DNA of 64,000 bases from a virus. The position numbers and the translations under genes are program-made. Of the stretch, positions 6,929-63,550 are shown piece by piece. The stretch is from the IMG/VR virus record IMGVR_UViG_3300036770_007703, positions 1 to 64,000 of that record; one strand, given 5' to 3'. Below the pieces are notes generated by a model that saw nothing but the letters and a program-made list of their open reading frames with translations, had not been told where the DNA came from and did no database searches. Numbering within the stretch: position 1 is the stretch's first letter; each line of letters begins with the position of its first letter.

Positions 6929-6938
6929 CCAAAAATCG

Positions 6939-6968
6939 TTGACAGAGTCGCCGGGGTCGTGTTAAACT
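6939..6968 (+). promoter_or_regulatory. Sigma70-like promoter (TTGACA-N18-TAAACT)
   Basis: Hexamers lie in the intergenic region before the 6986 ORF. Confidence 0.55.
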
Positions 6969-6985
6969 GATCCCGAGTCGACAAA

Positions 6986-38823: not shown

Positions 38824-38834
38824 TATATAATCTT

Positions 38835-40120
<1,286 letters not shown>

Positions 40121-40124
<4 letters not shown>

Positions 40125-42111: not shown

Positions 42112-42114
42112 AAT
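42086..42114 (+). promoter_or_regulatory. Sigma70-like promoter TTGACC-N17-TAGAAT with extended -10
   Basis: Lies upstream of the polymerase TTG start. Confidence 0.6.
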
Positions 42115-42136
42115 AACTCATCAACGAGGGAAAACA

Positions 42137-44797: not shown

Positions 44798-45792
44798 AAC
44801 TAAGCGAACTCATCAAATACCGAGAAAATCTCGCACAGCTAAGACCGCAAGATCCCGAGTCCACTATATCGTTGTCCTTGGATCCGGTGAGGCATCATAT
44901 CATGACTCATGAACCGCGTTTTAAAAAGCTCGCAGCCGATCTCGAGCAATCGCGGATACGAGTCAGCGCAGGCATACAAGATTATCTCAACACGCTCAAT
45001 GCCTATGATCACGAAGTCCAACGCCAGATCGATCAACTGCATGCCGAGTACATGGCCCGCAGTTATCGCATCTACGAACAAGAAATGAGCCGCGACGACG
45101 TGGACGTGATATTGAATCGCAAACTGGGTTACGAGCTGGAAAAACGCGAATACCTACGAGGTAGGATCGCGGCCCAGTGCGATTGGAAAAATCCCGGCAT
45201 GATCTTGAGACCGGCACGCGAGCAGTGGATACTCAAACTGGTGGGCTTGGATCCGCTTTACATCGTGGATCAAAGCCATGATCTCTTGCGACCATCTATC
45301 ACGCAGTTCACTCCCGAATATCAGCGTCGGTTGAGACCGTACATCATACGAGAAAGCGTGAGCGGCACCGTGGGACTGGATCTTCCCGATCGGCAAATGG
45401 GCTATGCGCTGATCTACAATTTTTTCAACTACAAGCCCATGGAACTGATAAGAGCCTACATGGAATGCATCGACAAAAAAATGGCCACGGGATCCATAGT
45501 TCATCTCACCATCAATGATTGTGACCGCAGTGGCGGTGCTTTGCTGGCCGAAAGTGGTTACATGTGTTACACGCCCGGTGGCATGGTCATCAGCATGTTG
45601 GAAAGCATGGAGTACGATCTCATCAACAGTTTTCACATCGATGAGGCAGTGACCTGGCTTGAGTTCCGCAAGTCCGGTGAGAGGATCAGTTATCGAGGCG
45701 GACAGACTCTGGCTAAAATTATTGACAAAAGCAATCGTTTCTATTACAATGACGATGACGTAGATACATCAAACCCCAAGGAGATATTATGA
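44794..45792 (+). CDS. Hypothetical protein with degenerate methyltransferase-like C-terminus
   Basis: Coiled N-terminus and Rossmann-like pattern (LYIVD, LP..Q.G....YNFFNY). Confidence 0.5.
   Translation: MKLSELIKYRENLAQLRPQDPESTISLSLDPVRHHIMTHEPRFKKLAADLEQSRIRVSAGIQDYLNTLNAYDHEVQRQIDQLHAEYMARSYRIYEQEMSRDDVDVILNRKLGYELEKREYLRGRIAAQCDWKNPGMILRPAREQWILKLVGLDPLYIVDQSHDLLRPSITQFTPEYQRRLRPYIIRESVSGTVGLDLPDRQMGYALIYNFFNYKPMELIRAYMECIDKKMATGSIVHLTINDCDRSGGALLAESGYMCYTPGGMVISMLESMEYDLINSFHIDEAVTWLEFRKSGERISYRGGQTLAKIIDKSNRFYYNDDDVDTSNPKEIL
45722..45750 (+). promoter_or_regulatory. Sigma70-like promoter TTGACA-N17-TACAAT
   Basis: Near-consensus match upstream of the clamp gene. Confidence 0.7.
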
Positions 45793-46520
45793 GAGATTAC
45801 CTATTAGATTTAGTATCACACACCTACGATCTTGGCTGCATAGATCTTGTCAAGATCACTGGCACAGACCAAGAAACCGTGATCGATGGCTTGGCCGAAG
45901 ATCGTTCAGTGGTGCTCAGTGCTCGGTTCTCGGGACCTGTGGCCGACTTCATTGGCACGTTTGGCATGCCAAATCTCGCCAAGCTCAAGATCCTGCTGAA
46001 TCTACAAGAATATCGCGAGGATGCTGACATCACTGTCAAGCGACAGGACCGCAACGGACAAGAAGTTCCTGTGGGACTGCACTTCAAGAACGCAGCCGGT
46101 GATTTCAAGAACGATTATAGATTCATGACTTCGGAGATCGTGGCCGAGAAACTCAAGACCGTGAAGTTTCGCGGTGTGAACTGGAACATCGAGTTCGAGC
46201 CCACAGTGGCAGGCATCCAGCGTCTCAAGATGCAGGCCCAAGCCAACAGCGAAGAGCCCATGTTCCAGGTCAAAGTAGACAACGGAAACTTGTTGTTCCA
46301 GTTCGGTGATCATAGCACACACGCCGGTGAGTTCATCTTCCATGCCGGTATCACTGGAGATCTCAAACGCACCTGGAGCTATCCGGTCAAACAAGTGATC
46401 TCGATCCTGGATCTCGTGGGCGACAAAGTGGTTCGCATCAGCGACGACGGAGCTGCTGAGATCACTGTGGACTCGGGCATGGCCCAGTATCGTTACATCC
46501 TACCAGCTCAAGTCAAGTGA
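45789..46520 (+). CDS. Sliding clamp (gp45/PCNA-like)
   Basis: 243 aa two-domain size, acidic, C-terminal Y.Y.LPA; near the polymerase, with a clamp loader in the window. Confidence 0.65.
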   Translation: MRDYLLDLVSHTYDLGCIDLVKITGTDQETVIDGLAEDRSVVLSARFSGPVADFIGTFGMPNLAKLKILLNLQEYREDADITVKRQDRNGQEVPVGLHFKNAAGDFKNDYRFMTSEIVAEKLKTVKFRGVNWNIEFEPTVAGIQRLKMQAQANSEEPMFQVKVDNGNLLFQFGDHSTHAGEFIFHAGITGDLKRTWSYPVKQVISILDLVGDKVVRISDDGAAEITVDSGMAQYRYILPAQVK

Positions 46521-48043
46521 CCGAACAATACGACCTCACTGGCCGACAACAGGATTATGCTGTGTTTTTGCCGGCCATATCCAGCTTTTATGCCACTTAC
46601 ATAGGCAAGCAACGCTACGACAACAATTTTGTTCCAGCTTCGCGCATGCCCGCTGGCATTCCTGACATGGAACAACTGAACTGGTTGAATGCCCAGAAAT
46701 CGTTGTTTCCCTATCGTTGGAGCCTGTACTCAGCGGGCCATGCCAACTTGGACGTATCAAAGTTGGTGCCCAAAGAAGACATGGTCAGGAACCGTGACCC
46801 CAACACCGTGATGTTGTGCGACTCAGGTGGATTTCAGATCGCCAAAGGTGTGTGGCCAGGACGCTGGGCCGATCCACGAGATCAGGCCGCAGAACGAAAA
46901 CGCAGAGAAGTCCTGGAGTGGCAATGTAGTATCGCCACTTATGGCATGACCATGGACATTCCCACCTGGACCTATCGCAATCCCGAATGGGCTGCGTTGG
47001 CTGGAATTTCCAGCTACGATGATGCTGTCACAGCCACCAAAAACAACAACGACTTCTGGATCGCCAATCGCCACGGTGATACCAAGATACTCAATGTGTT
47101 GCAGGGCGGTAACCATGCCGAAGCCGACCACTGGTACGACATCATGAAAGTGTATTCGGATCCCAAGCACTACCCAGAACGACACTTCAACGGCTGGGGC
47201 ATGGGCGGACAAAACATGTGTGACGTGCATCTCGTTCTCAAACGTCTGGTGCATCTCATACACGATGGCTTGCTGGAAAAAGGTGCCCATGATTGGATGC
47301 ACTTCTTGGGAACATCAAAACTGGAGTGGGCCGTGTTGCTCACTGACATCCAGCGCGCCATTCGCAAGTATCACAACAGCAACTTCACCATCAGTTTCGA
47401 TTGCGCTTCACCGTTCTTGGCCATCGCCAATGGTCAACTCTATCACGAGATCGTTACCGGAAATCGGGAAAAGTGGAGCTATCGCATGGAGCCCACGGCC
47501 GACAACAAAAAGTATGCCACAGACAATCGTCTGTTCCGAGACGCAGTGATACAGGACAGCATACATTCTGTTTTTGAGGACAGTCCGGTGAGCTCGCGTC
47601 TCAAGATTTCCGATGTGTGCGTGTACCGTCCTGGCGACGTCAACAAAGTGGGAAAAGAAGGCAAGACGTCATGGGACAGCTTCAGCTATGCTCTTCTCAT
47701 GGCGCACAATGCCTGGATGCACATTGAAGCGGTACAGCGAGCCAATCGACTCTATGATCAAGGCATCGTACCAGACATGATGGCACACCCCACCGACAAT
47801 GCTTTTGATGCCCGGACCGTGATAGACAAAGTGTTTGCCGCTCGTGATCGCCAAAAGAGCTTGCGCATAATCGATGAACATGCTAAAGTTTGGGAACGGG
47901 TGATTGGTACTCGTGGATTCACCGGAAAACGAGCTGTCAATGCCCATACCATGTTCAACAGTCTTTTTGATGTGACAGAAGAAGTCGAACCCGACAACGA
48001 ATTTGACCAAACCTGTCTTGACCGACTCGAGGAAAGTGTATAA
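46517..48043 (+). CDS. dpdA: DpdA/TGT-family guanine transglycosylase (7-deazaguanine insertion)
   Basis: DSGGFQ, MTMDIP, NVLQG, GWGMGG, HFLG, SFD..S TGT-barrel motifs; clustered with folE, queD and queE. Confidence 0.8.
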   Translation: MTEQYDLTGRQQDYAVFLPAISSFYATYIGKQRYDNNFVPASRMPAGIPDMEQLNWLNAQKSLFPYRWSLYSAGHANLDVSKLVPKEDMVRNRDPNTVMLCDSGGFQIAKGVWPGRWADPRDQAAERKRREVLEWQCSIATYGMTMDIPTWTYRNPEWAALAGISSYDDAVTATKNNNDFWIANRHGDTKILNVLQGGNHAEADHWYDIMKVYSDPKHYPERHFNGWGMGGQNMCDVHLVLKRLVHLIHDGLLEKGAHDWMHFLGTSKLEWAVLLTDIQRAIRKYHNSNFTISFDCASPFLAIANGQLYHEIVTGNREKWSYRMEPTADNKKYATDNRLFRDAVIQDSIHSVFEDSPVSSRLKISDVCVYRPGDVNKVGKEGKTSWDSFSYALLMAHNAWMHIEAVQRANRLYDQGIVPDMMAHPTDNAFDARTVIDKVFAARDRQKSLRIIDEHAKVWERVIGTRGFTGKRAVNAHTMFNSLFDVTEEVEPDNEFDQTCLDRLEESV

Positions 48044-48252
48044 TGTACGAAAATCGTATCCGGCACCTAGAAGAAATGCACCAGAATCTCAACAAGCGCA
48101 TCGATGGTTTGGAAAAAACCGGTGTTTTCGAAGACAAGAATCTGCTCGAACTCAAGAAACAAAAATTGGCCATACGTGATGAATTGAGCCGATTGCAGAA
48201 ACTGCAATGGGAGCATAATCACGAAAGCGTGAACTTGGAGGAAGATCGATGA
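48043..48252 (+). CDS. DUF465/YdcH-like coiled-coil protein
   Basis: L.E.H..L...I......LKKQKL.IRDE. Confidence 0.7.
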   Translation: MYENRIRHLEEMHQNLNKRIDGLEKTGVFEDKNLLELKKQKLAIRDELSRLQKLQWEHNHESVNLEEDR

Positions 48253-48773
48253 ACCGACCCGGGCACAAAGACACCGAGTTTTTCTGGGGCGACGAAGTAG
48301 AGCATACTCCGGTTCATGGTGAACCTACCTTGTTCGTGGTAGGATATCAGACCCAAGAAGCCATTGACTCTGCATTGCGTGACGCCAACTTTGCCAACAT
48401 TCCCGGAACAATCCGACACATCTTTTTTGGTGCCAACGACAGCTATCGTCCACGCACCGCAGATGATTTCACAGCCTGGGAGAACGTGATCATGACTTAT
48501 CTGGATCGTGGATTCTGGTGCAGTCTGGACGTTCCGTTCCAGTATGTGGAAGAGTTCCACGAAGGTGGCTTGTGCGAGCGTGATCGATTCATCCCCATCA
48601 TCAAGGTTCCCGTTCCTTACATCCGGCTCTGGAACTACAACACCTGTGTCAAGATCGATGATAGAGATTTCGCAGCCAGCAATCCCGGTGTGTGGGTACA
48701 TCAGCTACATGACCTCTTGCCACGTGACCGTTTCACGTCATGGGCCGACTACGACAAGGACCGCACTGTATGA
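48249..48773 (+). CDS. Hypothetical protein of the modification locus
   Basis: G.EVE.TP..G..TLFVVG, HIFFGAN.SY, KIDD.DF..SNPGVW. Confidence 0.7.
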   Translation: MNRPGHKDTEFFWGDEVEHTPVHGEPTLFVVGYQTQEAIDSALRDANFANIPGTIRHIFFGANDSYRPRTADDFTAWENVIMTYLDRGFWCSLDVPFQYVEEFHEGGLCERDRFIPIIKVPVPYIRLWNYNTCVKIDDRDFAASNPGVWVHQLHDLLPRDRFTSWADYDKDRTV

Positions 48774-49084
48774 AATGGTTTGACCGATGGTTTGTCCGCA
48801 AATGCAAATGGGCCTGGGACAATCGAGATATCGCCGATGTGGCAGAGACATCGCGTCTCAATTCGGCGAAATATGCCACAGCAATAGAAGAGGATTCGAC
48901 ACCATGGAACGATGGTCTCCGCATCAATATAAAAAAGATGATCGGCGGGTTTGTTGTTAGTTTCCGTGTGTATGATCGAAAAACAGATCGCACAGATGAC
49001 CGTGCTTACATCATCACCGACGAGCAGGATTTCAACACCGAACTGGGCAAGATTATAACCATGGAATCAATGAGGCAGACATGA
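48770..49084 (+). CDS. Hypothetical protein
   Basis: Coupled ORF. Confidence 0.65.
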   Translation: MKWFDRWFVRKCKWAWDNRDIADVAETSRLNSAKYATAIEEDSTPWNDGLRINIKKMIGGFVVSFRVYDRKTDRTDDRAYIITDEQDFNTELGKIITMESMRQT

Positions 49085-49521
49085 ATCAAGACGAAAGAGC
49101 CACAGCAGAACGCATCAAAGACCGAGCACGGCGCATGATCTGGGTCACTTTCCGCAAGGAAGGCATCCATCGTTATCCGGCAGCGGCCACAGATCCCCGA
49201 CTGTGTGCCGCCGGCGAGTATGATGTCAGTTTCCTGGCCAATGCACACAGACACATCTTTCACTTCCGGGTGGGCATCCAGGTGTTCCACAATGATCGGG
49301 ACATCGAGTTTATCCAGTTCAAACGCTGGCTGGAAAATCTCTATAACAAAGGCACCTTGGAGTTAGACTTCAAAAGTTGCGAGATGATTTCTGACGACTT
49401 ATATATACACATAGCAGATCGATATCCCGGACGCGACGTGTACATCGAAGTGGCAGAAGACGGCGAGAACGGTTGTGAGATCCGCTACGAAACCCATCAA
49501 CCACAAACCATTTCAGTCTAA
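49081..49521 (+). CDS. QueD-like T-fold protein
   Basis: F...GIH.Y, HRH.FH, SCE, V.V.EDGENG layout parallels PTPS/QueD metal motifs. Confidence 0.65.
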   Translation: MNQDERATAERIKDRARRMIWVTFRKEGIHRYPAAATDPRLCAAGEYDVSFLANAHRHIFHFRVGIQVFHNDRDIEFIQFKRWLENLYNKGTLELDFKSCEMISDDLYIHIADRYPGRDVYIEVAEDGENGCEIRYETHQPQTISV

Positions 49522-49533
49522 CAAGGAGTAATC

Positions 49534-49746
49534 ATGGGCCGGCCCCAGATCAAATCCAATCCACGAACCCAGTCCACTTTTGAGGATCTGGAAAACTTTC
49601 TGGACTTTTGTCGCAACTATGGATACAAGTTCCATGAAGGTGATCTCTACAACTGGAAGAGCTACGCCTTCCAGCAATTCAACAAATTCCAACAAGGCAA
49701 GCCCGCCAAAGACATGTGGGCCATCGACGCACGCCGCGCAGGGTAG
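49534..49746 (+). CDS. Hypothetical protein
   Basis: AGGAG RBS; 70 aa. Confidence 0.7.
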   Translation: MGRPQIKSNPRTQSTFEDLENFLDFCRNYGYKFHEGDLYNWKSYAFQQFNKFQQGKPAKDMWAIDARRAG

Positions 49747-49747
49747 C

Positions 49748-50437
49748 ATGGACTTTGATCGAGTCGGTCCAAAGTCTCGCGAACTGTGGCAACGTGTTTT
49801 TGATGGCAAGTCCGTCTTAGACATTGCCAGTCACACCGGGCGCACCAGTCAAGACATATTAGATTTTGGTGCGCGACGAGTCGTGGGACTAGAGCCCAGA
49901 CCCGACATGGTGATAGAAGCCCGCAGACAGAGATCCGATCCAAGGATAGAGTTCATCTGCGGTGATGCCACCGATGCCAGGATCATGCCGGCTTTGCTCG
50001 CCGAGGTAGACACAGTGGCCTGCCTGGGTGTACTATATCACATGCATGATCACTTCAACTTCTTCAAGTCGGTATGCGTGAGTCCGGTGCGATATCTCGT
50101 GATCGAGACCTTGTTTGGACTCGAAAGTCCCAATCCCACCATGCTATGCAACGTGGAATCGTCGCAGGAACAGGACCGAACATGTGGCATCAACGTGGGA
50201 TTTGATCGTGTCATGGTGGGCGCTCCCAACTTGGCCTGGATACATTCGGTGTTGGAGATATTTGGGTGGCACATCACATGGTTCAGCACCTACATCAGCC
50301 ACTTGCCCGATGACCGGATGTTGATCGTGGCCGAGAACAGCAGATACAGTGCTGGGACGCTGTTGCCCGGAGATCTCTGGCAGTGGCATGTTGAACCCGG
50401 TCACACAGTTGGTAGCAAGCATTTCAGTTTATATTAA
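49748..50437 (+). CDS. Class I SAM-dependent methyltransferase
   Basis: VLDIASHTG, VVGLEPR, GDA, CLGVLYH. Confidence 0.8.
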   Translation: MDFDRVGPKSRELWQRVFDGKSVLDIASHTGRTSQDILDFGARRVVGLEPRPDMVIEARRQRSDPRIEFICGDATDARIMPALLAEVDTVACLGVLYHMHDHFNFFKSVCVSPVRYLVIETLFGLESPNPTMLCNVESSQEQDRTCGINVGFDRVMVGAPNLAWIHSVLEIFGWHITWFSTYISHLPDDRMLIVAENSRYSAGTLLPGDLWQWHVEPGHTVGSKHFSLY

Positions 50438-50449
50438 CAAGGACGCATG

Positions 50450-51667
50450 ATGAGAAAACTTTTTTACATGGGGCTGGAAAGTTATGAGGCCCGTTATACC
50501 CTGCAACTCACAGAGTGGAACCGCCGTGTGTTTGAACGACGCGGTATCGATGTTGTGTATGTGCCCGGCAGCACCATCGATGACACCCAGAGTATCTCTG
50601 TGGGACAGGTCTTGGATGCACATGGTCGCAGTTATTTCTCAATGAGCCAGATGATGAATCTGGTACAATGGATGCGCAACGGAGAGGTCACCAATGAAGA
50701 TGTTATCTACTTTGAAGACATGTTTCAGCCCGGTATCGAGAGCTTACCTTATATTCTTGATCAAGTGCCTGAGTCTCAGCGTCCTCGCATTTTTGTCCGT
50801 TGTCTTGCTCAAGCCATTGATCCTGATGACTTCGTTCATGTCTGGGGCATGGCAGGCTGGATGTCAACGTATGAAAAGATGGTGAATCAGATCCCCGGCG
50901 TCACTGTGTTGGCCACCAACGAAGAGATGGTTGCTCACATGCGTATCGCGGGCTGGACTGCTCCCATCTACAATATCTCGGGCCTGGCGTTTGGCAAGGC
51001 GGAAGTGCTGGAACGCATTGGTGGTGCTGATTACATAAAACCATTCGCAAACAGAACCATGCGTGTAGGGTTTGCTGCCAGATTTGATCAGGAGAAACAG
51101 CCCGACTTTTATATGGACTTGATCGAGATGTATCTTGCGCAAGGTCGTCACAAGCACGTTGAGTTCGCTGTGTTTTCGGGTGGACCCTTGCGTAGCAATA
51201 ATCCTCGATACCTCGAACGTGCTCGGGACATGCAAGCCCAAGGCAAGTTAAAAATCTATGACGGGCTGAAGAAAAATGATTATTACCATCTCCTCAATGA
51301 TACTCGCGTGTTGTTCAATTGCGCCCTCCAAGATTGGGTCAGCAACACTGTTAGCGAAGCCGACACCTTGGGTTGTAATGTGCTGTATCCTGCATATCGC
51401 AGTTTCCCCGAGACCTTTGCCAACGACCCCCAGCGCTTGTATGTGCCTTGGAGCATAGATGATGCCTTCCACAAGTTGGAGAATCTCTTGGCAGAGCCAC
51501 ATCACAACATGGGCTTGATCTCGGCATGGACCAATGGCACAGTGGATCGTTGTCTAGACATCATGCTGGGCCAAGGCGAAGAATGGCGCAGAGACGGTGC
51601 TCGTTATCGAGATCATGTGAACACAGCCAAGTATGCTGTGCGGAAAGTCGAGGATCAAAATGTCTGA
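50450..51667 (+). CDS. GT-B fold glycosyltransferase (GT4-like)
   Basis: FAARFDQEKQP and LQDWVSNTVSEA..LGC..LYP nucleotide-sugar-binding region. Confidence 0.75.
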   Translation: MRKLFYMGLESYEARYTLQLTEWNRRVFERRGIDVVYVPGSTIDDTQSISVGQVLDAHGRSYFSMSQMMNLVQWMRNGEVTNEDVIYFEDMFQPGIESLPYILDQVPESQRPRIFVRCLAQAIDPDDFVHVWGMAGWMSTYEKMVNQIPGVTVLATNEEMVAHMRIAGWTAPIYNISGLAFGKAEVLERIGGADYIKPFANRTMRVGFAARFDQEKQPDFYMDLIEMYLAQGRHKHVEFAVFSGGPLRSNNPRYLERARDMQAQGKLKIYDGLKKNDYYHLLNDTRVLFNCALQDWVSNTVSEADTLGCNVLYPAYRSFPETFANDPQRLYVPWSIDDAFHKLENLLAEPHHNMGLISAWTNGTVDRCLDIMLGQGEEWRRDGARYRDHVNTAKYAVRKVEDQNV

Positions 51668-52619
51668 ACGTGTGGTAGTTACCGGTAGTTCGGGTTATAT
51701 CGGAGGCCAGACCACGATACGCCTCAAGGAACTGGGGTATCATGTGATCGGTATCGATGTGCAATCGTGTCCGCAAAGGTTGCGCAGTTATCAGGATCGT
51801 TCCTTTCAAGAAGACTACGCCAGTCGATTCGCCTTGGACTTGATCGCAGACTCGCAGCCCTTGGCCATCATCCATTGTGCTGGCACCAGTTTGGTGGGTC
51901 CCAGCCTCTTGGACCCAGAAAGATACTACAACAACAACTTCGTGAAAACCAAGCGTTTGATGGATCATGTGCGGGTGCGTGTTCCAAAAACACGCATGGT
52001 GTTTTCGAGCTCGGCTGCGGTGTACGGGGAACCAGTGATGACTCCATGTCACGAAGTTGATCCCACTCTCCCGATATCGCCTTATGGCGAAAGCAAACTC
52101 ATGATCGAAATGCTGCTACAGGCCTATCAACGTGCGTATGGAACCGATTTCGTGGCACTGAGATATTTCAATGCCGCCGGCGCTGACCCCAAGGGACGTC
52201 ATGGACAAAATCCAGCAGCCACACATCTCGTGGCTCGTGTGTTAGAGGCCAGCTTGAATCAATCCATGTTCACGCTCAACGGCAACGATTACCCCACACC
52301 TGATGGAACCTGCATCCGAGATTACATACACGTGGACGATCTCGCCGATGCACATGTGCGTGCCATGCTGCCAGAAACTGCGCCCGGGATTTACAATCTT
52401 GGCACCAATTCAGGACACAGCAATCTAGAAGTGATCGACACTGCCCGGAAAATCACTGGCATCGAACTGACCGTGGCACAAGGCCCCGCACGGGTGGGGG
52501 ATCCAGCACAGCTCACTGCGAACTCAGAAAAGTTTCGTTTGGCCACCGATTGGAAGCCCAAGTGGACGCTCGAGGACATCATTGCACATGCCTGGAGATG
52601 GTATCGCGATGGCGTTTGA
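51660..52619 (+). CDS. galE: UDP-glucose 4-epimerase
   Basis: VTGSSGYIG, FSSSAAVYG, YGESK, LRYFNAAGA, DGTCIRDYIHV.DLA.AH. Confidence 0.9.
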   Translation: MSERVVVTGSSGYIGGQTTIRLKELGYHVIGIDVQSCPQRLRSYQDRSFQEDYASRFALDLIADSQPLAIIHCAGTSLVGPSLLDPERYYNNNFVKTKRLMDHVRVRVPKTRMVFSSSAAVYGEPVMTPCHEVDPTLPISPYGESKLMIEMLLQAYQRAYGTDFVALRYFNAAGADPKGRHGQNPAATHLVARVLEASLNQSMFTLNGNDYPTPDGTCIRDYIHVDDLADAHVRAMLPETAPGIYNLGTNSGHSNLEVIDTARKITGIELTVAQGPARVGDPAQLTANSEKFRLATDWKPKWTLEDIIAHAWRWYRDGV

Positions 52620-53190
52620 TGCTCTGTTTGATTTCGAAAAAGCCTTGGCCGAATTCACTGGTGCACCTTATGTGGTGGTCACTGACGGTTGTACACATGC
52701 CATTGAACTTTGCATGAGATACCACGGTGTAAAGAAAACACGATTCACAGCATTTACCTATCTCAGCATACCGCAGCTGATGCGTCAACTTGACATCGAA
52801 CACGATCTGATCGGAGAAGAGTGGCACGGAGAATACCAATTCTATGACACCTGTATCTGGGATTCGGCCCGGCGGCTCGAATCCAACATGTACCGCAGTG
52901 GACAACGACAGTGCGTGAGTTTTGGTTTCGACAAACCGTTGGCCTTGGGCAAGGGTGGTGCTGTGTTGTTGGATGATCATCACGAATGGGAAGTGCTGTC
53001 ACGCTGGCGAGCCGATGGTCGAGATCTGCGAATATCACCGTGGCAACAACAGGTGAGATTTGGTCCTGGATGGCATTATTGTCCCACTCTAGAACTGTGT
53101 CGCCAAGGTTTGGCATTGCTGTCGGGGTTCTCTGGTGCTTGCCAGACAGCAAAGTATCCAGATTGTCGACAAATAGTGCTGGAATCTTGA
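52609..53190 (+). CDS. Compact DegT/DnrJ-type PLP aminotransferase-like protein
   Basis: FEKALAEFTGA.Y.V....CT.AI.L, DSA, SF...K.L..GKGG. Only 193 aa. Confidence 0.7.
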   Translation: MAFDALFDFEKALAEFTGAPYVVVTDGCTHAIELCMRYHGVKKTRFTAFTYLSIPQLMRQLDIEHDLIGEEWHGEYQFYDTCIWDSARRLESNMYRSGQRQCVSFGFDKPLALGKGGAVLLDDHHEWEVLSRWRADGRDLRISPWQQQVRFGPGWHYCPTLELCRQGLALLSGFSGACQTAKYPDCRQIVLES

Positions 53191-53250
53191 CCACGACCTA
53201 AATATCTTGTACAATAACAGCATGGCGATCCACCGCCCTAACTCGGAGAC
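53187..53250 (+). promoter_or_regulatory. Overlapping sigma70-like and late promoters plus 5' leader hairpin of folE
   Basis: TTGACC-N17-TACAAT (53187-53215) with TAAATA at 53199; hairpin GGCG-ATCCAC-CGCC; GGAG RBS. Confidence 0.6.
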
Positions 53251-53254
53251 TGTA

Positions 53255-53953
53255 ATGGAAAATGGGAAATACCTCAGCGATATTATCCGCAAGAACATGC
53301 GGGACAACAACAAACGATTCTGGGCCGGAGACAACATCTCCGACTATGTGCGTGACACAGATGTACCGTTCCTGATAGACGAAGCCACCGAAGCCTTTGA
53401 ACTGGTGTTGGATCGGCTCCTGATCGATAGAGAAACCGATCCCAACTCAAAGGGCACAGCACGCAGATTGGCCAAGATGTACTACAACGAGATCATGGCC
53501 GGTCGCTATGATGCCGCGCCTGATTGCACAGCGTTTCCCAATGATTCAGAGGATAGATATGAAGGAATGTTGGTGGTGCGGAGCGAAATCCGCAGCATGT
53601 GCAGCCATCATCACCAACCTGTTGTGGGTGTGGCTTATATTGGCATATTGGCTGCTCACAAGCTCATCGGGCTTTCCAAATATACCCGGATCGCCCAGTG
53701 GTGCAGCCGGCGTGGCACGCTACAGGAAGAACTCTGCAACGACATCGCCAGAGAGATCATGAAGGTCACTGACAGCCAGGACGTGGGAGTGTATATCCAA
53801 GCCACCCACGGCTGTTGCGAGAATCGTGGCATCATGGCACATTCCAGCCTCACCCAGACCACTGTGCTACATGGCATGTTCAAGACCGATCCTGCCGTGA
53901 AAAAAGAGTTCATCGACAACATCAAACTACAGCAGGACTTTGCACCAAGATGA
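53255..53953 (+). CDS. folE: GTP cyclohydrolase I
   Basis: T..R.AKMY, SMCSHH, GLSK..R, LQE, HGC...RG. Confidence 0.95.
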   Translation: MENGKYLSDIIRKNMRDNNKRFWAGDNISDYVRDTDVPFLIDEATEAFELVLDRLLIDRETDPNSKGTARRLAKMYYNEIMAGRYDAAPDCTAFPNDSEDRYEGMLVVRSEIRSMCSHHHQPVVGVAYIGILAAHKLIGLSKYTRIAQWCSRRGTLQEELCNDIAREIMKVTDSQDVGVYIQATHGCCENRGIMAHSSLTQTTVLHGMFKTDPAVKKEFIDNIKLQQDFAPR

Positions 53954-54345
53954 CAGATCTAGAACAAGCCCAACAACAACGAATAGCACCCTGGGATGAC
54001 GTGGTATGGGAGGACTTCCATGTCACGGTGTTTCGTGATCGGTATCCCGTGACTCCCGGCCATTTGTTGTTTGTGCCCAAATACAACAACAACGGCGTGA
54101 TACGCGAAGCACTGGCCAGTGCCCAGATCGAAGGAGACAACATGGTAGCCCGTGGCGACTGCGACGGCTACAACATCGGTCTCAACCAGGGACGATCGGC
54201 CGGACAAACAGTGATGTACCCTCATGTGCATCTCATTCCGCGACGCACCGGCGACTGCGCCGACCCCACAGGTGGTGTTCGTGGTGTGATACCCACTCAA
54301 CAGAATTACAAAAACACAGACTACAAAGATCCCACAGGTAAGTAA
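53950..54345 (+). CDS. HIT-family nucleotide hydrolase
   Basis: D.YPVTPGH.L.VPK, AGQTV..PHVHLIPR. Confidence 0.9.
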   Translation: MTDLEQAQQQRIAPWDDVVWEDFHVTVFRDRYPVTPGHLLFVPKYNNNGVIREALASAQIEGDNMVARGDCDGYNIGLNQGRSAGQTVMYPHVHLIPRRTGDCADPTGGVRGVIPTQQNYKNTDYKDPTGK

Positions 54346-54351
54346 CTGCTC

Positions 54352-54400
54352 AGCGGTCTCTCAATGACGCTCATCCCGCTCTATAAATTCTGCGTGTCAT
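54352..54400 (+). ncRNA. Candidate preQ1-I-like riboswitch/pseudoknot in the queD leader
   Basis: P1 AGCGG/CCGCT, loop ending CATC, A-rich CTATAAA tail; loop ATGACGC complementary to downstream GCGT(G)TCAT. Confidence 0.5.
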
Positions 54401-54431
54401 CAAACTTGCCCCTTATCACAGGAGACTAGAG

Positions 54432-54947
54432 ATGGCAAAATTCTATTCAACAAAAACCTATGGCAATGATCGCGGACTCAGCTGTTGTTTCCGGCAGTGG
54501 AGATCCACTCACAGTCATTGTTCTACCTTGCATGGATACAGCATAGGTATACGATTGATCTTTGAAAGCGAAACACTAGATGAACGCAACTGGGTCATGG
54601 ACTTCGGTGGACTCAAAGACTTCAAGGCCTGGGCCGACTACATGTTTGATCACACTCTGGTCATTGCCGAGGATGACCCGCATCTAGACTTTTTTAAAAT
54701 GATGGCCCAGCAGGTCACTGCGGGGTCCGAGAATCCCAACAGCTTTGTTCCACACGAGCGAGGAGCATTGTGCGACTTGCGTATAGTGCCAGCTGTGGGC
54801 TGTGAAATGTTTGCCAAACTGGCCTATGACAAAATGGCCGAATTGCTAAAGTCCGGCAAATCTAGGTATGTTATCAACCCAGGAGTTCGTGTAAAATCAG
54901 TTGAAGTATTCGAACACGGCGCCAACTCAGCGATCTACGAGGGCTAA
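54432..54947 (+). CDS. queD: 6-carboxy-tetrahydropterin synthase
   Basis: HCSTLHGY, WVMDFGGLK, FDHT, GCE, V.VFEH..NSA.Y. Confidence 0.9.
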   Translation: MAKFYSTKTYGNDRGLSCCFRQWRSTHSHCSTLHGYSIGIRLIFESETLDERNWVMDFGGLKDFKAWADYMFDHTLVIAEDDPHLDFFKMMAQQVTAGSENPNSFVPHERGALCDLRIVPAVGCEMFAKLAYDKMAELLKSGKSRYVINPGVRVKSVEVFEHGANSAIYEG

Positions 54948-54959
54948 AAGGACTTGGTC

Positions 54960-55673
54960 ATGTCATACATCTATGAATACCGATACTATCAACGCAGTGA
55001 TGGTATTCAAAGCTGGAAGAACCGTTCGTTAAAATTCGGTGACGCCATGGCTGCCTTGTGTTATGCCCACGACATACCCTGGGACTATCTCGAAGTATCG
55101 TTCCCCGAATGTTTCAAGCGCAACGAACTGGGACGATTGGAACGTCATCCCTACAGCGTCGACGATCAGATCGAGTTCATGCAAGAGATGGCGCAGCGGC
55201 ACCCCAAACGTGTGCTGGAGATTGGTGGCGGAAGAGGTGAGGTGGCCAATGTGTTGACACACATGGGCATACCCACAGTCAGCATCGAGACCGGACCCGA
55301 TTGTGATCGATGGTATCGAGAAACCGGACAGCAATTCTTTGGCAACGATGCATTGGTACAGCCCTTGAACATTGGTCTAGATCAAGCTCGGCGCGATCTA
55401 GATCTGTCTGAGTTTGACACCATCATCATGGTAGAGACACTGGAACACATTCCTGTCGAAGAGTTTGATCCTTTCTGGGATCATGTGGTAGAAAAATTCC
55501 GTGGTAGATTCGTAGTCACTAACTGGAAAAATTTCCATCCCATTTGGGTAGGTCGTGGTGCAGGCCCCCAAGAACATTGCCGTTTGGTAGACGACGATCT
55601 CTATGATCGATTCAGTTCGCAGGCACGAGAAGTCGTGATCCGAGACGGTAGCCATCTAGTATTGGATTTGTAA
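54960..55673 (+). CDS. Class I SAM-dependent methyltransferase
   Basis: VLEIGGGRGE, FDTIIMVETLEHI. Confidence 0.8.
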   Translation: MSYIYEYRYYQRSDGIQSWKNRSLKFGDAMAALCYAHDIPWDYLEVSFPECFKRNELGRLERHPYSVDDQIEFMQEMAQRHPKRVLEIGGGRGEVANVLTHMGIPTVSIETGPDCDRWYRETGQQFFGNDALVQPLNIGLDQARRDLDLSEFDTIIMVETLEHIPVEEFDPFWDHVVEKFRGRFVVTNWKNFHPIWVGRGAGPQEHCRLVDDDLYDRFSSQAREVVIRDGSHLVLDL

Positions 55674-56471
55674 ATGTTATCTATATTATTGCCCACTCGC
55701 GGTCGACAGGAATCTCTCAAGCACAGCGTGATGAGCCTGGTAGATCTGGCCAACGACAACACCCAGATCGAATGGTGGTTTGGTTTTGACGACGATGATC
55801 AAAGCAGTTTGGAATATTGCCAGCGTGAAATCTTGCCCGAGCTTGATCGTCGAGGCAGTGTTTATACCGTGATGCAGTTCCAGCGACTGGGCTACGGTCG
55901 CCTCAATGAATACGTGAATGCCCTGGCACGTGATGCCACCGGCGATTGGTTGATCTTCTGGAACGACGATGCTGTGATGCGCACCCAAGACTGGGACGTG
56001 GTGATACGCAGCCACACCGGGAAGTTCGTGATACAGGCGTTTGACACACACAAAAAACACCCGTATTCGATATTTCCCATCGTTCCGCGCGAGTGGAGAG
56101 ACGAACTTGGGCTGTTGAGCCATCATCCGCTCAATGATGCCTGGATCAGCCAGATCGCCTGGATCTTGGACATCATGGTGAGGATCGACGTGGTAGTGGA
56201 TCACGAACGATTTGATCTCACCGGCAAAAACGGTGATGACACCTACAAAGAACGGCAGATCTACGAAGGCAATGTCAACGATCCCAGAGATTTCAATCAC
56301 ATCAGCAATCGACGTGTGAGACTTGATGCTGCTAACCGGCTGGCCCGCTACATGGCCAAACGCAAAGATTGTGATCTCACTCACTGGAACGAAGTGGCAC
56401 AGGGACGCAGAGATCCTTGGTCCAAGATGCTGGAGTCAGATGTCAACAACCAAATGATGAGGATAGTTTGA
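55674..56471 (+). CDS. GT2-family glycosyltransferase
   Basis: SILLPTRGR, FDDDD, N.LA..ATGDWL..WNDD. Confidence 0.85.
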   Translation: MLSILLPTRGRQESLKHSVMSLVDLANDNTQIEWWFGFDDDDQSSLEYCQREILPELDRRGSVYTVMQFQRLGYGRLNEYVNALARDATGDWLIFWNDDAVMRTQDWDVVIRSHTGKFVIQAFDTHKKHPYSIFPIVPREWRDELGLLSHHPLNDAWISQIAWILDIMVRIDVVVDHERFDLTGKNGDDTYKERQIYEGNVNDPRDFNHISNRRVRLDAANRLARYMAKRKDCDLTHWNEVAQGRRDPWSKMLESDVNNQMMRIV

Positions 56472-57046
56472 TGAAAAAAGTCTATGTGAGTTGGACCGAT
56501 GTACAACGTCAAACACAGGATATCATTCGTCAGATGAATCTAGACGACTGGAGACCCGACTACGTGGTGGGTATCACTCGCGGAGGATTGGCGCCAGCGG
56601 TGCTGATAAGCCAATATCTAAATGTGCGCATGGAAACGCTCAAGGTCAGTTTGCGTGACAACGTGGATTGTGAAACCAATTGCTGGATGCCCGAGGATGC
56701 GTTTGGATATGTGTGGAAAGAACATCGCAAGGATCCAGAGGTCACCAGCGACATCGATCGCAGACAACGCATACTCATCGTGGACGACATCAATGATTCC
56801 GGTGAAACCTTGAACTGGATAAAAAACGACTGGCAAAGTTCTTGCATGCCCAATGATCCGGCCTGGCAAGACATATGGAATCACAACGTGCGCATCGCTG
56901 TGTTGTACCAAAACGAAAGCAGCCATTCTGAATTGACTCCTGACTATGCAGCCGAAGTCATCAACAAACTGGAGGAACCACAGTGGGTGGTGTTTCCCTG
57001 GGAAGAGTGGTGGCGGAGATGGAACCCCAGCGAGGAGCATCAATGA
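56471..57046 (+). CDS. Purine phosphoribosyltransferase (Gpt/Hpt-like)
   Basis: VVGITRGGL, ILIVDDINDSGET (PRPP motif), WVVFPWE. Confidence 0.88.
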   Translation: MKKVYVSWTDVQRQTQDIIRQMNLDDWRPDYVVGITRGGLAPAVLISQYLNVRMETLKVSLRDNVDCETNCWMPEDAFGYVWKEHRKDPEVTSDIDRRQRILIVDDINDSGETLNWIKNDWQSSCMPNDPAWQDIWNHNVRIAVLYQNESSHSELTPDYAAEVINKLEEPQWVVFPWEEWWRRWNPSEEHQ

Positions 57047-57378
57047 AGGATCAGCCAGATCTCAACATCATGACCACCGGTGTTTATGATGATGCACGCT
57101 CATTTCGTGTGGCCTGTGACTGCCATGACAATGATCACGATGTCGACGTCTGGATCGAAGTTGAAACTGAGGAGGAATCGCCGGGAATCACCGTAACATT
57201 TTATCGTGAACTAGATACTCCGTGGTGGGAATCGGGTTTCAACCGATTCCGCGAAGCCTGGCGCATCCTGGTGCATGGACGCAGCCGATTCTCTGGCACA
57301 TTGATCATGCAGGCCGAAACTGCCGAGGCCTTGTGTGACGCTATCCGATCATCAATTGAAAGATTAAAGAAACGATGA
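57043..57378 (+). CDS. Hypothetical protein
   Basis: Coupled ORF with a CDC...H motif. Confidence 0.65.
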   Translation: MKDQPDLNIMTTGVYDDARSFRVACDCHDNDHDVDVWIEVETEEESPGITVTFYRELDTPWWESGFNRFREAWRILVHGRSRFSGTLIMQAETAEALCDAIRSSIERLKKR

Positions 57379-57626
57379 CACTACCCGACGAACGCTATCG
57401 TGCCGTCAAGCACACTGAACAGTTCCTACGGCGTCTAGCAGCTGGAGATATTCCCCGTGTGCCCAAGGCAGTTCGCGATGAAGCTCGAGCCCTGTTGCGA
57501 CACTATCCTAATCAATGGGATATAGACAGGTTGGCAGAAAAATCACCTGATGTGATAACAAAAGAAATGGAACCACTCACCAAAATGGTGATGCAATACG
57601 ATATCAACCAAAAGGAAAATCCATGA
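57375..57626 (+). CDS. Hypothetical protein
   Basis: MTLPDER.RA...FL..L...P.VP..VR..AR.LLRHYP. Confidence 0.7.
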   Translation: MTLPDERYRAVKHTEQFLRRLAAGDIPRVPKAVRDEARALLRHYPNQWDIDRLAEKSPDVITKEMEPLTKMVMQYDINQKENP

Positions 57627-57985
57627 GCGACGTTTTCAGCGATCAAAGAAAATTCATGACCGTGTCCGGCCAGTCCGTGGACCGTTACAATCCCGACCAA
57701 TTCGAGCTTTACAAACGCTTGATACAAGAAGAAGTCACTGAACTGGAAGAAGCTGTTGACATGGAGGCCGAACTGGATGCTCTCATCGACATCTTGGTGG
57801 TGACTGTGGGTGCCATCCACAGCATGGGCGCCGATGCTGAAAGTGCCTGGAAAGAAGTGTTCCGCAGCAACATGGCCAAAGTGGATCCCATCACAGGTCG
57901 TGTGATGAAACGCGAAGATGGCAAAGTGCTCAAACCCGCCAATTGGGAACCACCTAGGTTGTCTGGTTTTCTCAGGAAATCATGA
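57623..57985 (+). CDS. MazG-like/PRA-PH NTP pyrophosphohydrolase
   Basis: EE..EL..A....ELDALID, SNMAK, REDGKVLKP. Confidence 0.85.
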   Translation: MSDVFSDQRKFMTVSGQSVDRYNPDQFELYKRLIQEEVTELEEAVDMEAELDALIDILVVTVGAIHSMGADAESAWKEVFRSNMAKVDPITGRVMKREDGKVLKPANWEPPRLSGFLRKS

Positions 57986-58419
57986 CTGCCATGATCGAAC
58001 CCTTGCGCGATGACCTCATGGTACAGCAACAACTGCCGGCGGGGTTTGGCCCGATTGGTGCCTGGCAACACATGGTGGCAGTGATCATGCTGAACCAGAC
58101 TGGACGAAAACCTGTGAAAACGGTATTTCCCATTTTCATGCACCGATGGCCCACACCCCTGTCTTTCTACAAGGCCACGGAACAGGAAGTCAAAGATGTG
58201 ATATGGCCTCTGGGTATGATGAATGTGCGTTATAAACGACTCAAAGGCATGACCCAAGACTTCTTGACGTGGGACCAAGATGATGCTACAATGTTGTATG
58301 GCATCGGCAAATATGGTTCGGACTCATATGAGATCTTTTTCAAGAACAACTACACTGTGGAACCCACTGACAAAGAACTGCGGCGCTACTTGGACGAAGA
58401 AATTTTCACAACGGCCTAA
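57982..58419 (+). CDS. HhH-GPD DNA glycosylase, MBD4-like
   Basis: W..MVA.IMLN.T, WPTP, PLG...[22 protein letters not shown]. Confidence 0.8.
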
Positions 58420-58427
58420 ATAAAATC

Positions 58428-59315
58428 ATGGAAAAAATCACTTACACTGAAATCTTTTACAGCCTGCAAGGCGAGGGCAAATGGGCCGGTGTGCCCTCGG
58501 TGTTCTTCCGCACATACGGTTGCAACTTCCGTTGCCGCAAGTTTGGTCGCACAGACGACTTCGAAGGGCACAACCCCGAAGTGGTGGACATCATCAAGAT
58601 GGTGCAAGCCGAGCCCGAGAAATACAAAAAGTTCGAAGACTTGCCCCTTGTGACCACAGGCTGCGATACCTATGCCAGCATCTATCCCGAATTCAAGAGT
58701 TTCAACGAACAGGATGATGTTGACACCATCGTGGATCGCATGCATGCCTTGATTCCCAACAACACCTGGGACCAAGGCTGGAACGATGATGTGCATCTCG
58801 TGATCACGGGTGGAGAACCACTCTTGGGTTATCAAAAATTGTATCCCGAGATGCTTCAACGCTGCCGAGACAATGGTCTACGCAACCTCACATTTGAGAC
58901 CAACGGCAGCCAGGAGCTCTATCCCGAAGTCGAACGATATCTCTTTGAAGAATTTACACGCAACGGTAGAGACTATGATCGGCTCACATTCAGTGTCAGC
59001 CCCAAATTGCCCTGTTCGGGTGAGCGGTGGGAATCGGCTATCAACCCCAAGGTGGTCAAAAGCTACGAGATGGTGGGTATGACCTATCTCAAGTTTGTAG
59101 TGGCCACGAGGCAGGACGTAGAAGATGCTGAACGTGCTGTCACAGAGTTCCGCGAAGCCGGCTTTGGTGGACCGGTGTATCTCATGCCCATGGGCGGTGT
59201 GCCGCAGGTTTACAATCTCAACACACAAGAAGTGGCTCGCTTGGCCATGGAGCGAGGTTGGCGCTACAGTCCCAGGCTGCAAGTGGATATCTGGAGGAAC
59301 GCATGGGGAACTTGA
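58428..59315 (+). CDS. queE: 7-carboxy-7-deazaguanine synthase (radical SAM)
   Basis: [19 protein letters not shown]...CDT, ITGGEPL, ETNG, SVSPK, R.S.RLQ. Confidence 0.9.
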
Positions 59316-60070
59316 CCACCAAACAACGCATCAAATCCATCACTGGCTGGATCAAAGACTACGCCAAGAAAAATCGCATCAAGACCTTGGTGGTAGGAGT
59401 TTCTGGCGGCATCGATTCCGCAGTGGTCAGTGCCTTGTGTGCTCGCACTGGCTTGCCCACCATCGCAGTGAGCATGCCCATCCATCAGAGCAAAAAGACA
59501 CACAGCCTTAGCGTGGCCCACGGTGCTTGGTTGAGAGAAAATTTTGAAAACGTGCGGCACGAGACTGTAGATCTCACACCCACGTTCCGGCAGTTTGAAC
59601 GACTGTTTGATGGCGGATCCGAGCTGGGCTTGGCCAACAGCCGTGCCCGACTCAGGATGATGTGCCTATACCAGACTGCACAAGATGCTGGTGGTATCGT
59701 GGTAGGCACCGGTAACCGTGTGGAAGACTTTGGTGTGGGCTTCTTTACCAAGTACGGTGATGGCGGTGTGGATATCAGCCCCATCGGCGACTGTCTCAAA
59801 ACCGAAGTCTGGGCCATGGGACGCGAGTTGGGCATTCTCGACGAAATCATCGATGCACCCCCCACTGACGGTCTCTGGGCCGATGGACGCACCGACGAAA
59901 CACAATTGGGCATGACCTATCCCGAACTGGAAGAGGCCATGCAGCTGGACGAGGTCGCCGAGACCGCTGACCTAGATCGCGGGCAACGAGCAAGGTTGAA
60001 ACGCTATCGAGAGATCCGTGCCCGTAACTTGCACAAGATGCTGCCCATCCCGGTGTGCAAGATAGATTAA
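59303..60070 (+). CDS. nadE: NH3-dependent NAD+ synthetase
   Basis: [10 protein letters not shown]-loop, [38 protein letters not shown]. Confidence 0.92.
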
Positions 60071-60085
60071 AAAGAAAGGCAACAC

Positions 60086-61186: not shown

Positions 61187-61189
61187 GTG

Positions 61190-61438
61190 ATGCCGGTACC
61201 ATTCATGGACATACAGTACTATGATTTTTTTGACGAGCTTGCCACTCTACAGCATCGCTGGAGTTGGTGGCCGCGTCGATGCCATATATCCGGGCGTTGG
61301 TTGTTTTGCCAACCAGCAGTTCGTGCCCGTGTTGTGTACACTGGTCCCGGTGATCCCGTCGTAAAAGATCGATGGTATCACCGTCAAGAAGCATTGGTAA
61401 AAATTATGAGAGGATCACATCATGGGTTTGTTCGATAG
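61190..61438 (+). CDS. Hypothetical protein
   Basis: W.WWPRRC..SG.WL pattern. Confidence 0.55.
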   Translation: MPVPFMDIQYYDFFDELATLQHRWSWWPRRCHISGRWLFCQPAVRARVVYTGPGDPVVKDRWYHRQEALVKIMRGSHHGFVR

Positions 61439-63547: not shown

Positions 63548-63550
63548 TCT

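Follow-up and report, generated by a model that had tools for sequence, protein, structure and literature searches.

A probable DpdL-type 7-deazaguanine module with a linked GT-B glycosyltransferase in the replication region of an uncultured jumbo phage

We describe a gene cluster in the first 64 kb (positions 1 to 64,000, hereafter the window) of the 85,288-bp IMG/VR viral contig IMGVR_UViG_3300036770_007703. The cluster is probably a QueC-less, DpdL-type module that modifies phage DNA with 7-deazaguanine, located in a replication slot between a clamp-like gene and an RNase H gene. That the phage DNA carries some base of the 7-deazaguanine type is, in our view, very likely. This reading draws on the synthesis genes FolE, QueD and QueE, on the proposed decarboxylase DpdL, on the absence of QueC, on a 508-residue protein whose predicted structure is that of TGT and DpdA enzymes, and on a gene order shared by 80 related viral loci and three near-complete genomes. 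A GT-B glycosyltransferase is an integral part of the module. An initial annotation, made from the sequence alone, had proposed a 7-deazaguanine locus with a TGT/DpdA-like enzyme beside replication genes, and both the QueC-less gene set and the TGT fold bear this out. All the genes that it named are co-oriented on the + strand and lie where it had placed them. CheckV puts the completeness of the contig at 25%; since its relatives are genomes of 316-345 kb that are 91-99% complete, the source would be an uncultured jumbo phage of about 340 kb.

Results

Family searches confirmed the three deazaguanine synthesis genes that had been read from the sequence. FolE, the GTP cyclohydrolase I that takes the first step from GTP (53207-53953, +), matches Pfam at E 1e-39, its NCBIfam FolE matches lying under their cut-offs. 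QueD, a 6-carboxytetrahydropterin synthase (54432-54947, +), is recognized by Pfam PTPS (E 1e-15) and by the QueD-like PHROG (E 6e-37), and bears CxxxHGY where the canonical motif is CxxxHGH. QueE, the radical S-adenosylmethionine (SAM) enzyme 7-carboxy-7-deazaguanine (CDG) synthase (58428-59315, +), matches the QueE-like PHROG at E 1e-50 together with several NCBIfam QueE models. Its cluster cysteines C32, C36 and C79 are invariant, and a 39-residue insert separates the second and third iron-sulfur cysteines, where the QueE of phage ACP17 has a plain CX3CX2C. Neither QueC nor QueF was found above the family cut-off in the 85-kb contig, in three relatives that are 91-99% complete (G001-G003) or in the Pseudomonas jumbo phage PA5oct; the absence of queC and queF that had been noted for the window thus extends to the full contig and the near-complete relatives. 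Six-frame scans of the same sequences gave no match to the Pfam TGT family (PF01702), and QueC and TGT were likewise not found in phage Phosso.

Several weak candidates for the missing genes were considered and set aside. The sole match to QueC (PF06508) in the contig is the gene for the PP-loop enzyme NadE (59258-60070, +), which scores just 15-17 bits with the QueC model and is a full-length NAD+ synthase in three libraries (Pfam NAD_synthase E 5e-50; TIGR00552 above cut-off; PHROG NAD synthetase E 1e-82). NadE and the end of queE overlap; G001-G003 have no NadE in this slot, and it is probably an unrelated metabolic gene. The QueC-like matches in the relatives are short, weak PP-loop matches, one of which reaches 24.9 bits only when summed with its frame neighbours while the rest stay below cut-off; they lie tens of kb off in the three genomes and may be NadE-like. 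The single QueF-like match in the relatives is below cut-off and falls inside the FolE gene. An Rfam search of 45500-64000, including the gap at 54339-54431 before queD, gave no preQ1 riboswitch match at E up to 1; a TATAAAT in that gap resembles what we take to be a T4-type late promoter.

The end point of the predicted pathway depends on the gene at 49081-49521 (+). The initial annotation had called it QueD-like; the gene stands, but its identity does not, as its 146-residue product carries LANAHRHIF. This is the LxxxHRHxF signature that replaces the CxxxHGH of QueD and defines DpdL, described as a T-fold protein derived from QueD and proposed to be a CDG decarboxylase (Cui, Hutinet et al., PMC10516641). 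In a 29-sequence alignment that includes the DpdL proteins of ACP17 and phiST, signature residues L52, H56, H58 and F60 are invariant and R57 nearly so, and H30, H70, E76, E101 and E126 are invariant as well. The protein is 55% identical to ACP17 DpdL (tblastn E 2e-38; phmmer E 1e-41) and 32% identical to phiST DpdL (tblastn E 5e-8; phmmer E 1e-13). It has no Pfam PTPS match; the T-fold/PTPS homology of DpdL has been placed at 99.9% by HHpred (PMC10516641). DpdL co-occurs with FolE, QueD, QueE and a DpdA-like enzyme, and without QueC. The initial annotation, which missed DpdL, had favoured CDG as the inserted base. With FolE, QueD, QueE and DpdL present and QueC absent, the prediction moves to 7-deazaguanine, present in DNA as 2'-deoxy-7-deazaguanosine (dDG). 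In two phages, phiST (PMC10516641) and vibriophage VP1 (10.1101/2025.10.29.685425), measurement showed dDG in place of all dG. As a separate observation, the DpdL clusters of phages X1 and BCSR5 contain PP-loop genes of the PAPS-reductase type, which may have a carboxylate-activating role.

The probable deazaguanine inserter is a 508-residue protein (46517-48043, +) with no match in Pfam, PHROGs, NCBIfam or PDB sequences (phmmer; hmmsearch with a 53-sequence profile). Its AlphaFold (AF2) model, built on a diverse alignment, reaches a pLDDT of 91 and a pTM of 0.88, and the top 50 PDB matches returned by Foldseek are all Zymomonas TGT (E about 3e-7, prob 1.0). VIA, a structure search independent of Foldseek, gave Z-scores of 19.5 for ArcTGT, 18.5 for QTRT2, 17.5 for bacterial TGT, 16.5 for DpdA (PDB 7ui4) and 14.8 for Cap10; generic TIM barrels score at most 11.6, well under these five TGT-superfamily entries. 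Conservation across 53 sequences centres on D102-S-G-G-F-Q107, D147, H262/G265 and D295 as the invariant residues, with D102, S103, G105 and D295 fully so and G104 and Q107 nearly so; D295 sits in SFDCASPF. We take the D102-Q107 and D295 regions to correspond to the DSGGFQ and catalytic-Asp motifs of TGTs. By hhalign the family aligns with the 416-446-residue TGT-like proteins that lie beside DpdL in ACP17, X1, BUCT-ZZ01 and BCSR5 (Prob 97.9%, E 3.5e-13), motif against motif with the ACP17-type proteins.

With DpdA, the preQ0 insertase, and with TGTs the 508-residue protein shares the TIM-barrel TGT fold (Z 16.5-19.5), DSGGFQ and an Asp in an MFDCV-like motif. It differs from them in giving no sequence-level match to Pfam TGT or PDB, in showing no zinc-site Cys or His among its invariant columns, and in an extra helical C-terminal region (residues 388-507 of the model). 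Because QueC is absent, its substrate is presumably not preQ0. The label dpdA/TGT in the initial annotation holds for the fold and the motifs; no curated family (Pfam PF01702) takes the protein in, and the support comes from fold comparison and hhalign. Most likely it is a divergent TGT-superfamily protein with a DpdA-like function; it falls into no named DpdA subfamily. The family is large, with more than 7,500 sequences in a word-indexed search and 910 representatives at 50% identity in a full HMMER search.

The second element of interest is a GT4-type GT-B glycosyltransferase (50447-51667, +). Its own Pfam match is weak (17.9 bits, below cut-off); homologues pass the Glycos_transf_1 / Glyco_trans_1_4 cut-offs, with 45.5 bits for X1, 42 for BCSR5, and 28.3 and 26.5 for BUCT-ZZ01, whose GT-B is 66% identical to that of the window. 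The language-model (ESM) neighbours of the protein are GT4 clusters. The family has the motifs R..EKQP and D/E-x7-E (D296...E304 in the window protein) and an N-terminal EPxExRYT of its own, and residues R209, E213, K214, K272 and E300 are invariant (numbered by the first sequence of alignment A5); we read these motifs as the E-x7-E of GT4 enzymes and the donor-diphosphate-binding Arg/Lys. The GT-B profile gave no significant match to PDB sequences or to a second, canonical GT4 of the contig, and a single-protein IMG/VR search with the X1 GT-B gave no match. That canonical GT4 is encoded past the window (contig 69084-70094, -), next to a metallophosphoesterase gene; it matches both GT4 Pfam domains strongly and is unrelated to the DpdL-linked family.

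How closely is GT-B bound to DpdL? A tblastn search of 50,697 phage records found GT-B in 14, all of which have DpdL within 3 kb, and never without DpdL. Profile searches bring in ACP17, BCSR5 and Phosso as carriers. Neighbourhoods were fetched for 11 cultured lineages with DpdL, and seven of these have GT-B; it was not found within 7-9 kb of DpdL in the phiST group, RHph_I1_18, Ahp1 and Bakedbeans. We also inspected the best 80 of at least 462 IMG/VR relatives (query alignment A5) with flanks of 8 kb. DpdL is present in 75 of these GT-B loci, within 3 kb in 74 and within 100 nt in 16, and 78 have at least one deazaguanine gene. At 50% identity the 80 loci fall into 16 clusters, and 15 of these contain DpdL. 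The sole cluster whose flanks are devoid of deazaguanine genes consists of two IMG/VR loci (L112 and L113), both of which carry a homologue of the nucleotidyltransferase described below. The phages behind the DpdL-linked loci range in size from about 95 to 470 kb and differ in TGT type, and GT-B is single-copy and inside the cluster in all five whole genomes. Within the clade of the window it is 67-88% identical, more conserved than the TGT-like protein. In BUCT-ZZ01 the DpdL is only 39% identical and the TGT-like protein is unmatched by the profile of the window family, set against 66% for GT-B, so that GT-B moves between clusters yet stays inside them. The BUCT-ZZ01 locus (Synechococcus phage, L093) also has a second, weak GT4-like gene of 447 residues at 6364-7707, between FolE and the TGT-like gene.

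Querying with the TGT-like protein gave a separate set of 80 related viral loci (63-81% identity) with a shared order: TGT-like gene, (DUF465), a 174-residue protein that we call g174, (g114), DpdL, GT-B, GalE, a short DegT, FolE, (HIT), QueD and GT2. The three near-complete genomes continue with (a purine phosphoribosyltransferase, PRT), (an MBD4-like glycosylase), QueE, g129, a nucleotidyltransferase and an SGNH protein, with MazG nearby. The GT-B loci were divided by the identity of their GT-B to that of the window into near (at least 60%, n=42) and far (below 60%, n=38) loci, and on this comparison GT-B and, in part, GalE, PRT and g174 are the only genes of those compared that belong to the module. 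UDP-glucose 4-epimerase GalE (51633-52619, +; TIGR01179 equivalog, 296 bits against a cut-off of 262) lies directly downstream of GT-B in 28 of the 80 GT-B loci, is present in 31 near and 5 far loci, and probably supplies the donor sugar for GT-B. The PRT, of xanthine/guanine type (56417-57046, +, probable start 56471; Pfam Pribosyltran E 5e-12), has a xanthine PRT as its best NCBIfam match, below cut-off. Its homologues adjoin QueE in BUCT-ZZ01 and PA5oct, and it is found in 29 of the GT-B loci (20 near, 9 far). The conserved g174 (48249-48773, +) stands between the TGT-like gene and DpdL, in 73 of the 80 TGT-like loci; in ACP17 a homologue (profile E 3e-14) lies ahead of the TGT-like gene, and 24 near and 8 far GT-B loci have it. 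Its AF2 model has a pLDDT of 87 and no fold match stands out (Foldseek E above 0.008, VIA Z at most 6.5); ESM gives a weak lead to SGNH hydrolases. Before it lies a variable companion, a small DUF465 protein (48043-48252, +; Pfam E 7e-11), present in 32 of the TGT-like loci. The initial annotation had suspected that GT-B and the gene at 48249 travel with dpdA: GT-B does prove linked to DpdL, and g174 is so in part.

The remaining genes of the run are of a different kind. GT2, the short DegT, both methyltransferases, HIT, NadE and the nucleotidyltransferase are, on our reading, lineage-specific passengers. A class-I SAM methyltransferase (49580-50437, +, start codon uncertain; Pfam Methyltransf_25 E 3e-10) lies between DpdL and GT-B. 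It was found by tblastn in 7 of the 80 TGT-like loci, mostly as pieces of about 50 residues, with a long match only in L049 and L051, and in 2 near and no far GT-B loci. A second class-I methyltransferase (54954-55673, +; Pfam Methyltransf_23 E 3e-9) is rare (2 of 80 TGT-like and none of 80 GT-B loci). The clade-specific, shortened DegT-like pyridoxal phosphate protein of 202 residues (52582-53190, +; Pfam DegT E 6e-11, over the N-terminal part alone) covers DegT residues 31-91 and 174-253, keeps the SF..K lysine motif with K118 and D94 invariant, is without the C-terminal domain, and occurs in 5 near and 1 far GT-B loci. The HIT-family protein (53815-54345, +, real start probably ATG 53950; Pfam HIT E 4e-11) is HinT-like and clade-specific, with 1 near and 1 far locus. 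The GT2-like glycosyltransferase (55674-56471, +), also clade-specific, matches a glycosyltransferase PHROG at E 3e-15 and Pfam GT2 at E 6e-4, below cut-off; it is present in the three complete relatives, yet in only 1 near and no far GT-B locus. A MazG-like nucleotide pyrophosphohydrolase (57623-57985, +; Pfam PRA-PH E 6e-9, PHROG E 2e-34) is found slightly further downstream in relatives G001 and G002, and in none of the near or far GT-B loci. Next to it is a 145-residue HhH-GPD DNA glycosylase domain of MBD4 type (57982-58419, +), which matches the MBD4 glycosylase domain at E 1e-14 (PDB phmmer) and keeps the catalytic-Asp motif; in the 316-kb relative, G003, QueE has a copy at 85% identity as its neighbour. 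As a guess, deaminated cytosines facing the modified guanine may be what this protein, related to T/U:G mismatch glycosylases, repairs.

Family searches uphold the first labels of GalE, the methyltransferases, HIT, PRT and MazG, and that of DegT only in the conserved, shortened 202-residue form. For the pair first named as GT-B and GT2 the window matches of both lie below Pfam cut-offs; the former is validated through its X1, BCSR5 and BUCT-ZZ01 homologues, and the latter fares better in PHROGs. By the initial annotation's own measure, glycosyltransferases that assort independently of dpdA would have told against it. GT-B does not assort in this way; GT2 does not travel with the module. The suggestion of a methylated amino-sugar on the base is not supported, as the genes concerned do not travel with the module: among the 80 GT-B loci GT2 is found in 1, the methyltransferases in 0-2 and the short DegT in 6.

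The locus is held within a replication region, in which PolB (42086-44797) is followed by a 352-residue gene and then by the 243-residue clamp-like gene (45789-46520, +) directly upstream of the module. The clamp-like protein has no Pfam match; PA5oct gp314 and a Phosso protein that bears the annotation sliding clamp share 33-35% identity with it. A sliding clamp had been placed just before the run. The position is right; the name comes from the annotation of the Phosso homologue, the one profile match being phrog_12062, for which no function is given. The co-oriented run extends to the gene for an RNase H / 5'-3' exonuclease (63551-64552). Megablast of the whole locus against phages gave no match. 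Between NadE and the end of the run lie S-adenosylmethionine synthetase MetK (60086-61186, +), which matches all three Pfam MetK domains (E 1e-30 to 1e-56) and would supply SAM, and the sugar-phosphate nucleotidyltransferase (62361-62837, +), which is RfaE-II / TagD-like (Pfam CTP_transf_like E 2e-12; TIGR02199 E 2e-23, below cut-off), 74-87% identical in G001-G003, and present in 9 near and 2 far GT-B loci. An S-adenosylhomocysteine hydrolase at 38802-40124 (+) would, with MetK, complete most of a methyl (SAM) cycle. Elsewhere the window encodes a ClpB-like double AAA+ chaperone (18471-20750, +) and a 1291-residue protein with an amidoligase domain (25577-29452, +).

Discussion

What we observe is which genes are present and absent, the TGT fold, the DpdL signature and the co-occurrence; from this we infer the following series of enzymatic steps, with phage DNA as their target. 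FolE would convert GTP into dihydroneopterin triphosphate, which QueD would turn into 6-carboxytetrahydropterin. QueE, using SAM from the phage MetK, would make CDG, and DpdL would decarboxylate it to 7-deazaguanine. The TGT/DpdA-like enzyme, to judge by its context, would then exchange guanine in phage DNA for 7-deazaguanine, while PRT and the MazG-like enzyme could feed a side route at the nucleotide level. The locus is a variant of the known DpdL-type deazaguanine system, and its TGT-like family was previously unannotated.

Two cultured phages place this variant. Cellulophaga phage phiST makes dDG with FolE, QueD, QueE, DpdL and DpdA3 (PMC10516641); it has the same QueC-less set and the same LxxxHRHxF signature, and its cluster also lies beside replication genes with a MazG-like gene nearby. 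The TGT-like enzyme of the window has 508 residues against the 259 of phiST DpdA3, to which it is weakly alignable (hhalign Prob 65%), and the window has GT-B, g174, GalE and PRT, all four of which phiST lacks. Closer in layout is PA5oct (Wroclawvirus), in which gp316-gp322 fill the same slot: PolB, clamp-like gene, TGT-like gene, GT-B, DpdL, a small gene, an SDR (GalE) fragment, PRT and QueE, with RNase H three genes after QueE. Its TGT-like protein is 35% and its DpdL 52% identical to those of the window. The PA5oct cluster is compact, GalE being a 172-residue fragment and GT2, DegT and the methyltransferase being absent; FolE and QueD are not part of it, and QueD (PTPS) has been reported elsewhere in the genome (PMC12191111). 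PA5oct DNA resists restriction enzymes with G-containing sites, and the paper that described this noted only QueE and PTPS (PMC12191111).

A number of observations weigh against the reading of the locus as a 7-deazaguanine module with GT-B as a working part. The decarboxylase activity of DpdL is only proposed, and E. coli given DpdL and DpdA from ACP17 and phiST made no dDG, other enzymes perhaps being required (PMC10516641). A comparison of the DpdL profile with the QueD of the window by hhalign was not significant (Prob 12%). The TGT-like protein is too far from DpdA for assignment at sequence level, and its alignment shows no Cys/His zinc motif among the invariant columns, with no Cys invariant or nearly so. 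Since phiST makes dDG without any GT-B, a GT-B is unneeded for dDG; 7-deazaguanine is without an obvious hydroxyl for accepting a sugar; and the literature searched reports no DNA chemistry for any GT-B-carrying phage. Set beside these are the QueC-less gene set, the fold and the order of genes across loci, and on balance we retain the DpdL-type module as the probable explanation.

What base does such a module leave in the DNA? Plain dDG is the first candidate, and we put it at somewhat short of an even chance. Next comes a hexosylated 7-deazaguanine, possible but held tentatively, for which the GT4 enzyme would use UDP-galactose or UDP-glucose, balanced by GalE, to glycosylate either the free base together with DpdL or the base in DNA. 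Such a base would fit with a GT-B family that is nearly confined to DpdL clusters and often start/stop-coupled to DpdL, that keeps its GT4 catalytic motifs and is conserved above the TGT-like protein, that is often followed directly by GalE, and that, as BUCT-ZZ01 illustrates, moves between clusters but stays inside them. It would also fit with the failure of heterologous DpdL and DpdA alone (PMC10516641) and with the near-complete relatives, where no other modifiable base pathway was found. On the other side, the literature searched contains no glycosylated deazapurine in DNA, both phages with measured dDG, phiST and VP1, have the plain base, and the acceptor, on a base without a hydroxyl, is purely inferred.

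We speculate that a C-7 nucleophile arising from decarboxylation might be captured as a C-glycoside, so that the sugar would come to lie in the major groove, as the glucose does on T4 hydroxymethylcytosine (hmC). Capture at carbon 7 would explain the tight coupling of DpdL and GT-B. There are two precedents for parts of this chemistry. The alpha- and beta-glucosyltransferases of T4 are phage enzymes of GT-B fold that use UDP-hexose and are tied to hmC modification of DNA; the family here differs, being GT4-like, and there is no hmC pathway. Indeed, no ThyA or dCMP-hydroxymethylase family was found in the three near-complete relatives, and hmC or hydroxymethyluracil was rejected as the GT-B acceptor on that ground. 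QTMAN/GTDC1, the tRNA queuosine mannosyltransferase, is also of GT-B type and transfers a hexose onto a derivative of 7-deazaguanine; queuosine, however, offers a cyclopentenediol acceptor that the pathway of the window cannot make. A relationship of GT-B to QTMAN was likewise discarded, as QTMAN_N (PF12038) gave no match at E up to 1 in the contig, two complete relatives, PA5oct and Phosso.

A different route to a modified genome, which we consider unlikely, would run ahead of replication: PRT makes the nucleotide, kinases and a reductase turn it into the deoxynucleoside triphosphate, MazG removes dGTP and PolB incorporates the product, the TGT-like enzyme being left to proofreading or salvage. 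PRT enzymes attach phosphoribosyl pyrophosphate to CDG in the biosynthesis of tubercidin and toyocamycin. The clusters of the window, PA5oct and BUCT-ZZ01 all include PRT, as do 29 of the 80 GT-B loci; MazG is present here, and a MazG/dUTPase-like gene in the phiST cluster; and guanine is fully replaced in phiST and VP1 (PMC10516641; 10.1101/2025.10.29.685425). Most loci, however, are without PRT and MazG, and all phages with such a pathway encode a DpdA-type enzyme, which has been read as insertion after replication (PMC10516641).

It is more doubtful still that the sugar genes act on virion proteins or the host surface, in a slot between clamp and RNase H that collects early metabolic genes. 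GT2, the short DegT, the methyltransferases, the SGNH protein and the nucleotidyltransferase do leave DpdL outside the close clade, the slot also has NadE, MetK, HIT and the MBD4-like glycosylase, and the canonical GT4 lies elsewhere on the contig. For GT-B itself this explanation fails, as GT-B is with DpdL in 15 of 16 clusters and, across the 50,697 phage records, never without it. That the TGT-like enzyme works on tRNA or protein instead of DNA is very improbable: its nearest solved folds are tRNA enzymes and it matches Cap10 at Z 14.8 (entry 9ntn, a complex with the protein CdnD bearing the NDG modification), but in all relatives its gene has the PolB/clamp-like genes on one side and RNase H on the other, PA5oct DNA withstands restriction at G-containing sites (PMC12191111), and a DpdL-type cluster yields dDG in phiST DNA.

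What are the implications of a DpdL module that includes a glycosyltransferase? A GT-B inside the deazaguanine gene set of hundreds of phages points to a missing step of the pathway, and it may account for the failed reconstitution by DpdL and DpdA alone. To our knowledge, the sugar-bearing bases of DNA are so far all pyrimidines, and the 7-deazaguanine modifications that we know of carry small groups. A hexosyl-deazaguanine, if true, would be the first case of a sugar on a purine in any DNA, and it would be widespread, given at least 462 GT-B loci in IMG/VR, among them the cultured phages PA5oct, ACP17, Xanthomonas phage X1, Synechococcus phage BUCT-ZZ01, Burkholderia phage BCSR5 and Sinorhizobium phage Phosso. 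As these cultured phages carry the same module, its base chemistry is testable. The TGT/DpdA-like proteins, with their 910 representatives at 50% identity, form a large family that escapes standard libraries, and they give PA5oct-like phages, which are therapeutic candidates, a likely enzyme for a guanine modification so far without explanation. A modification of this kind would matter for restriction, for defences that use glycosylases or END nucleases, and for how these genomes are sequenced.

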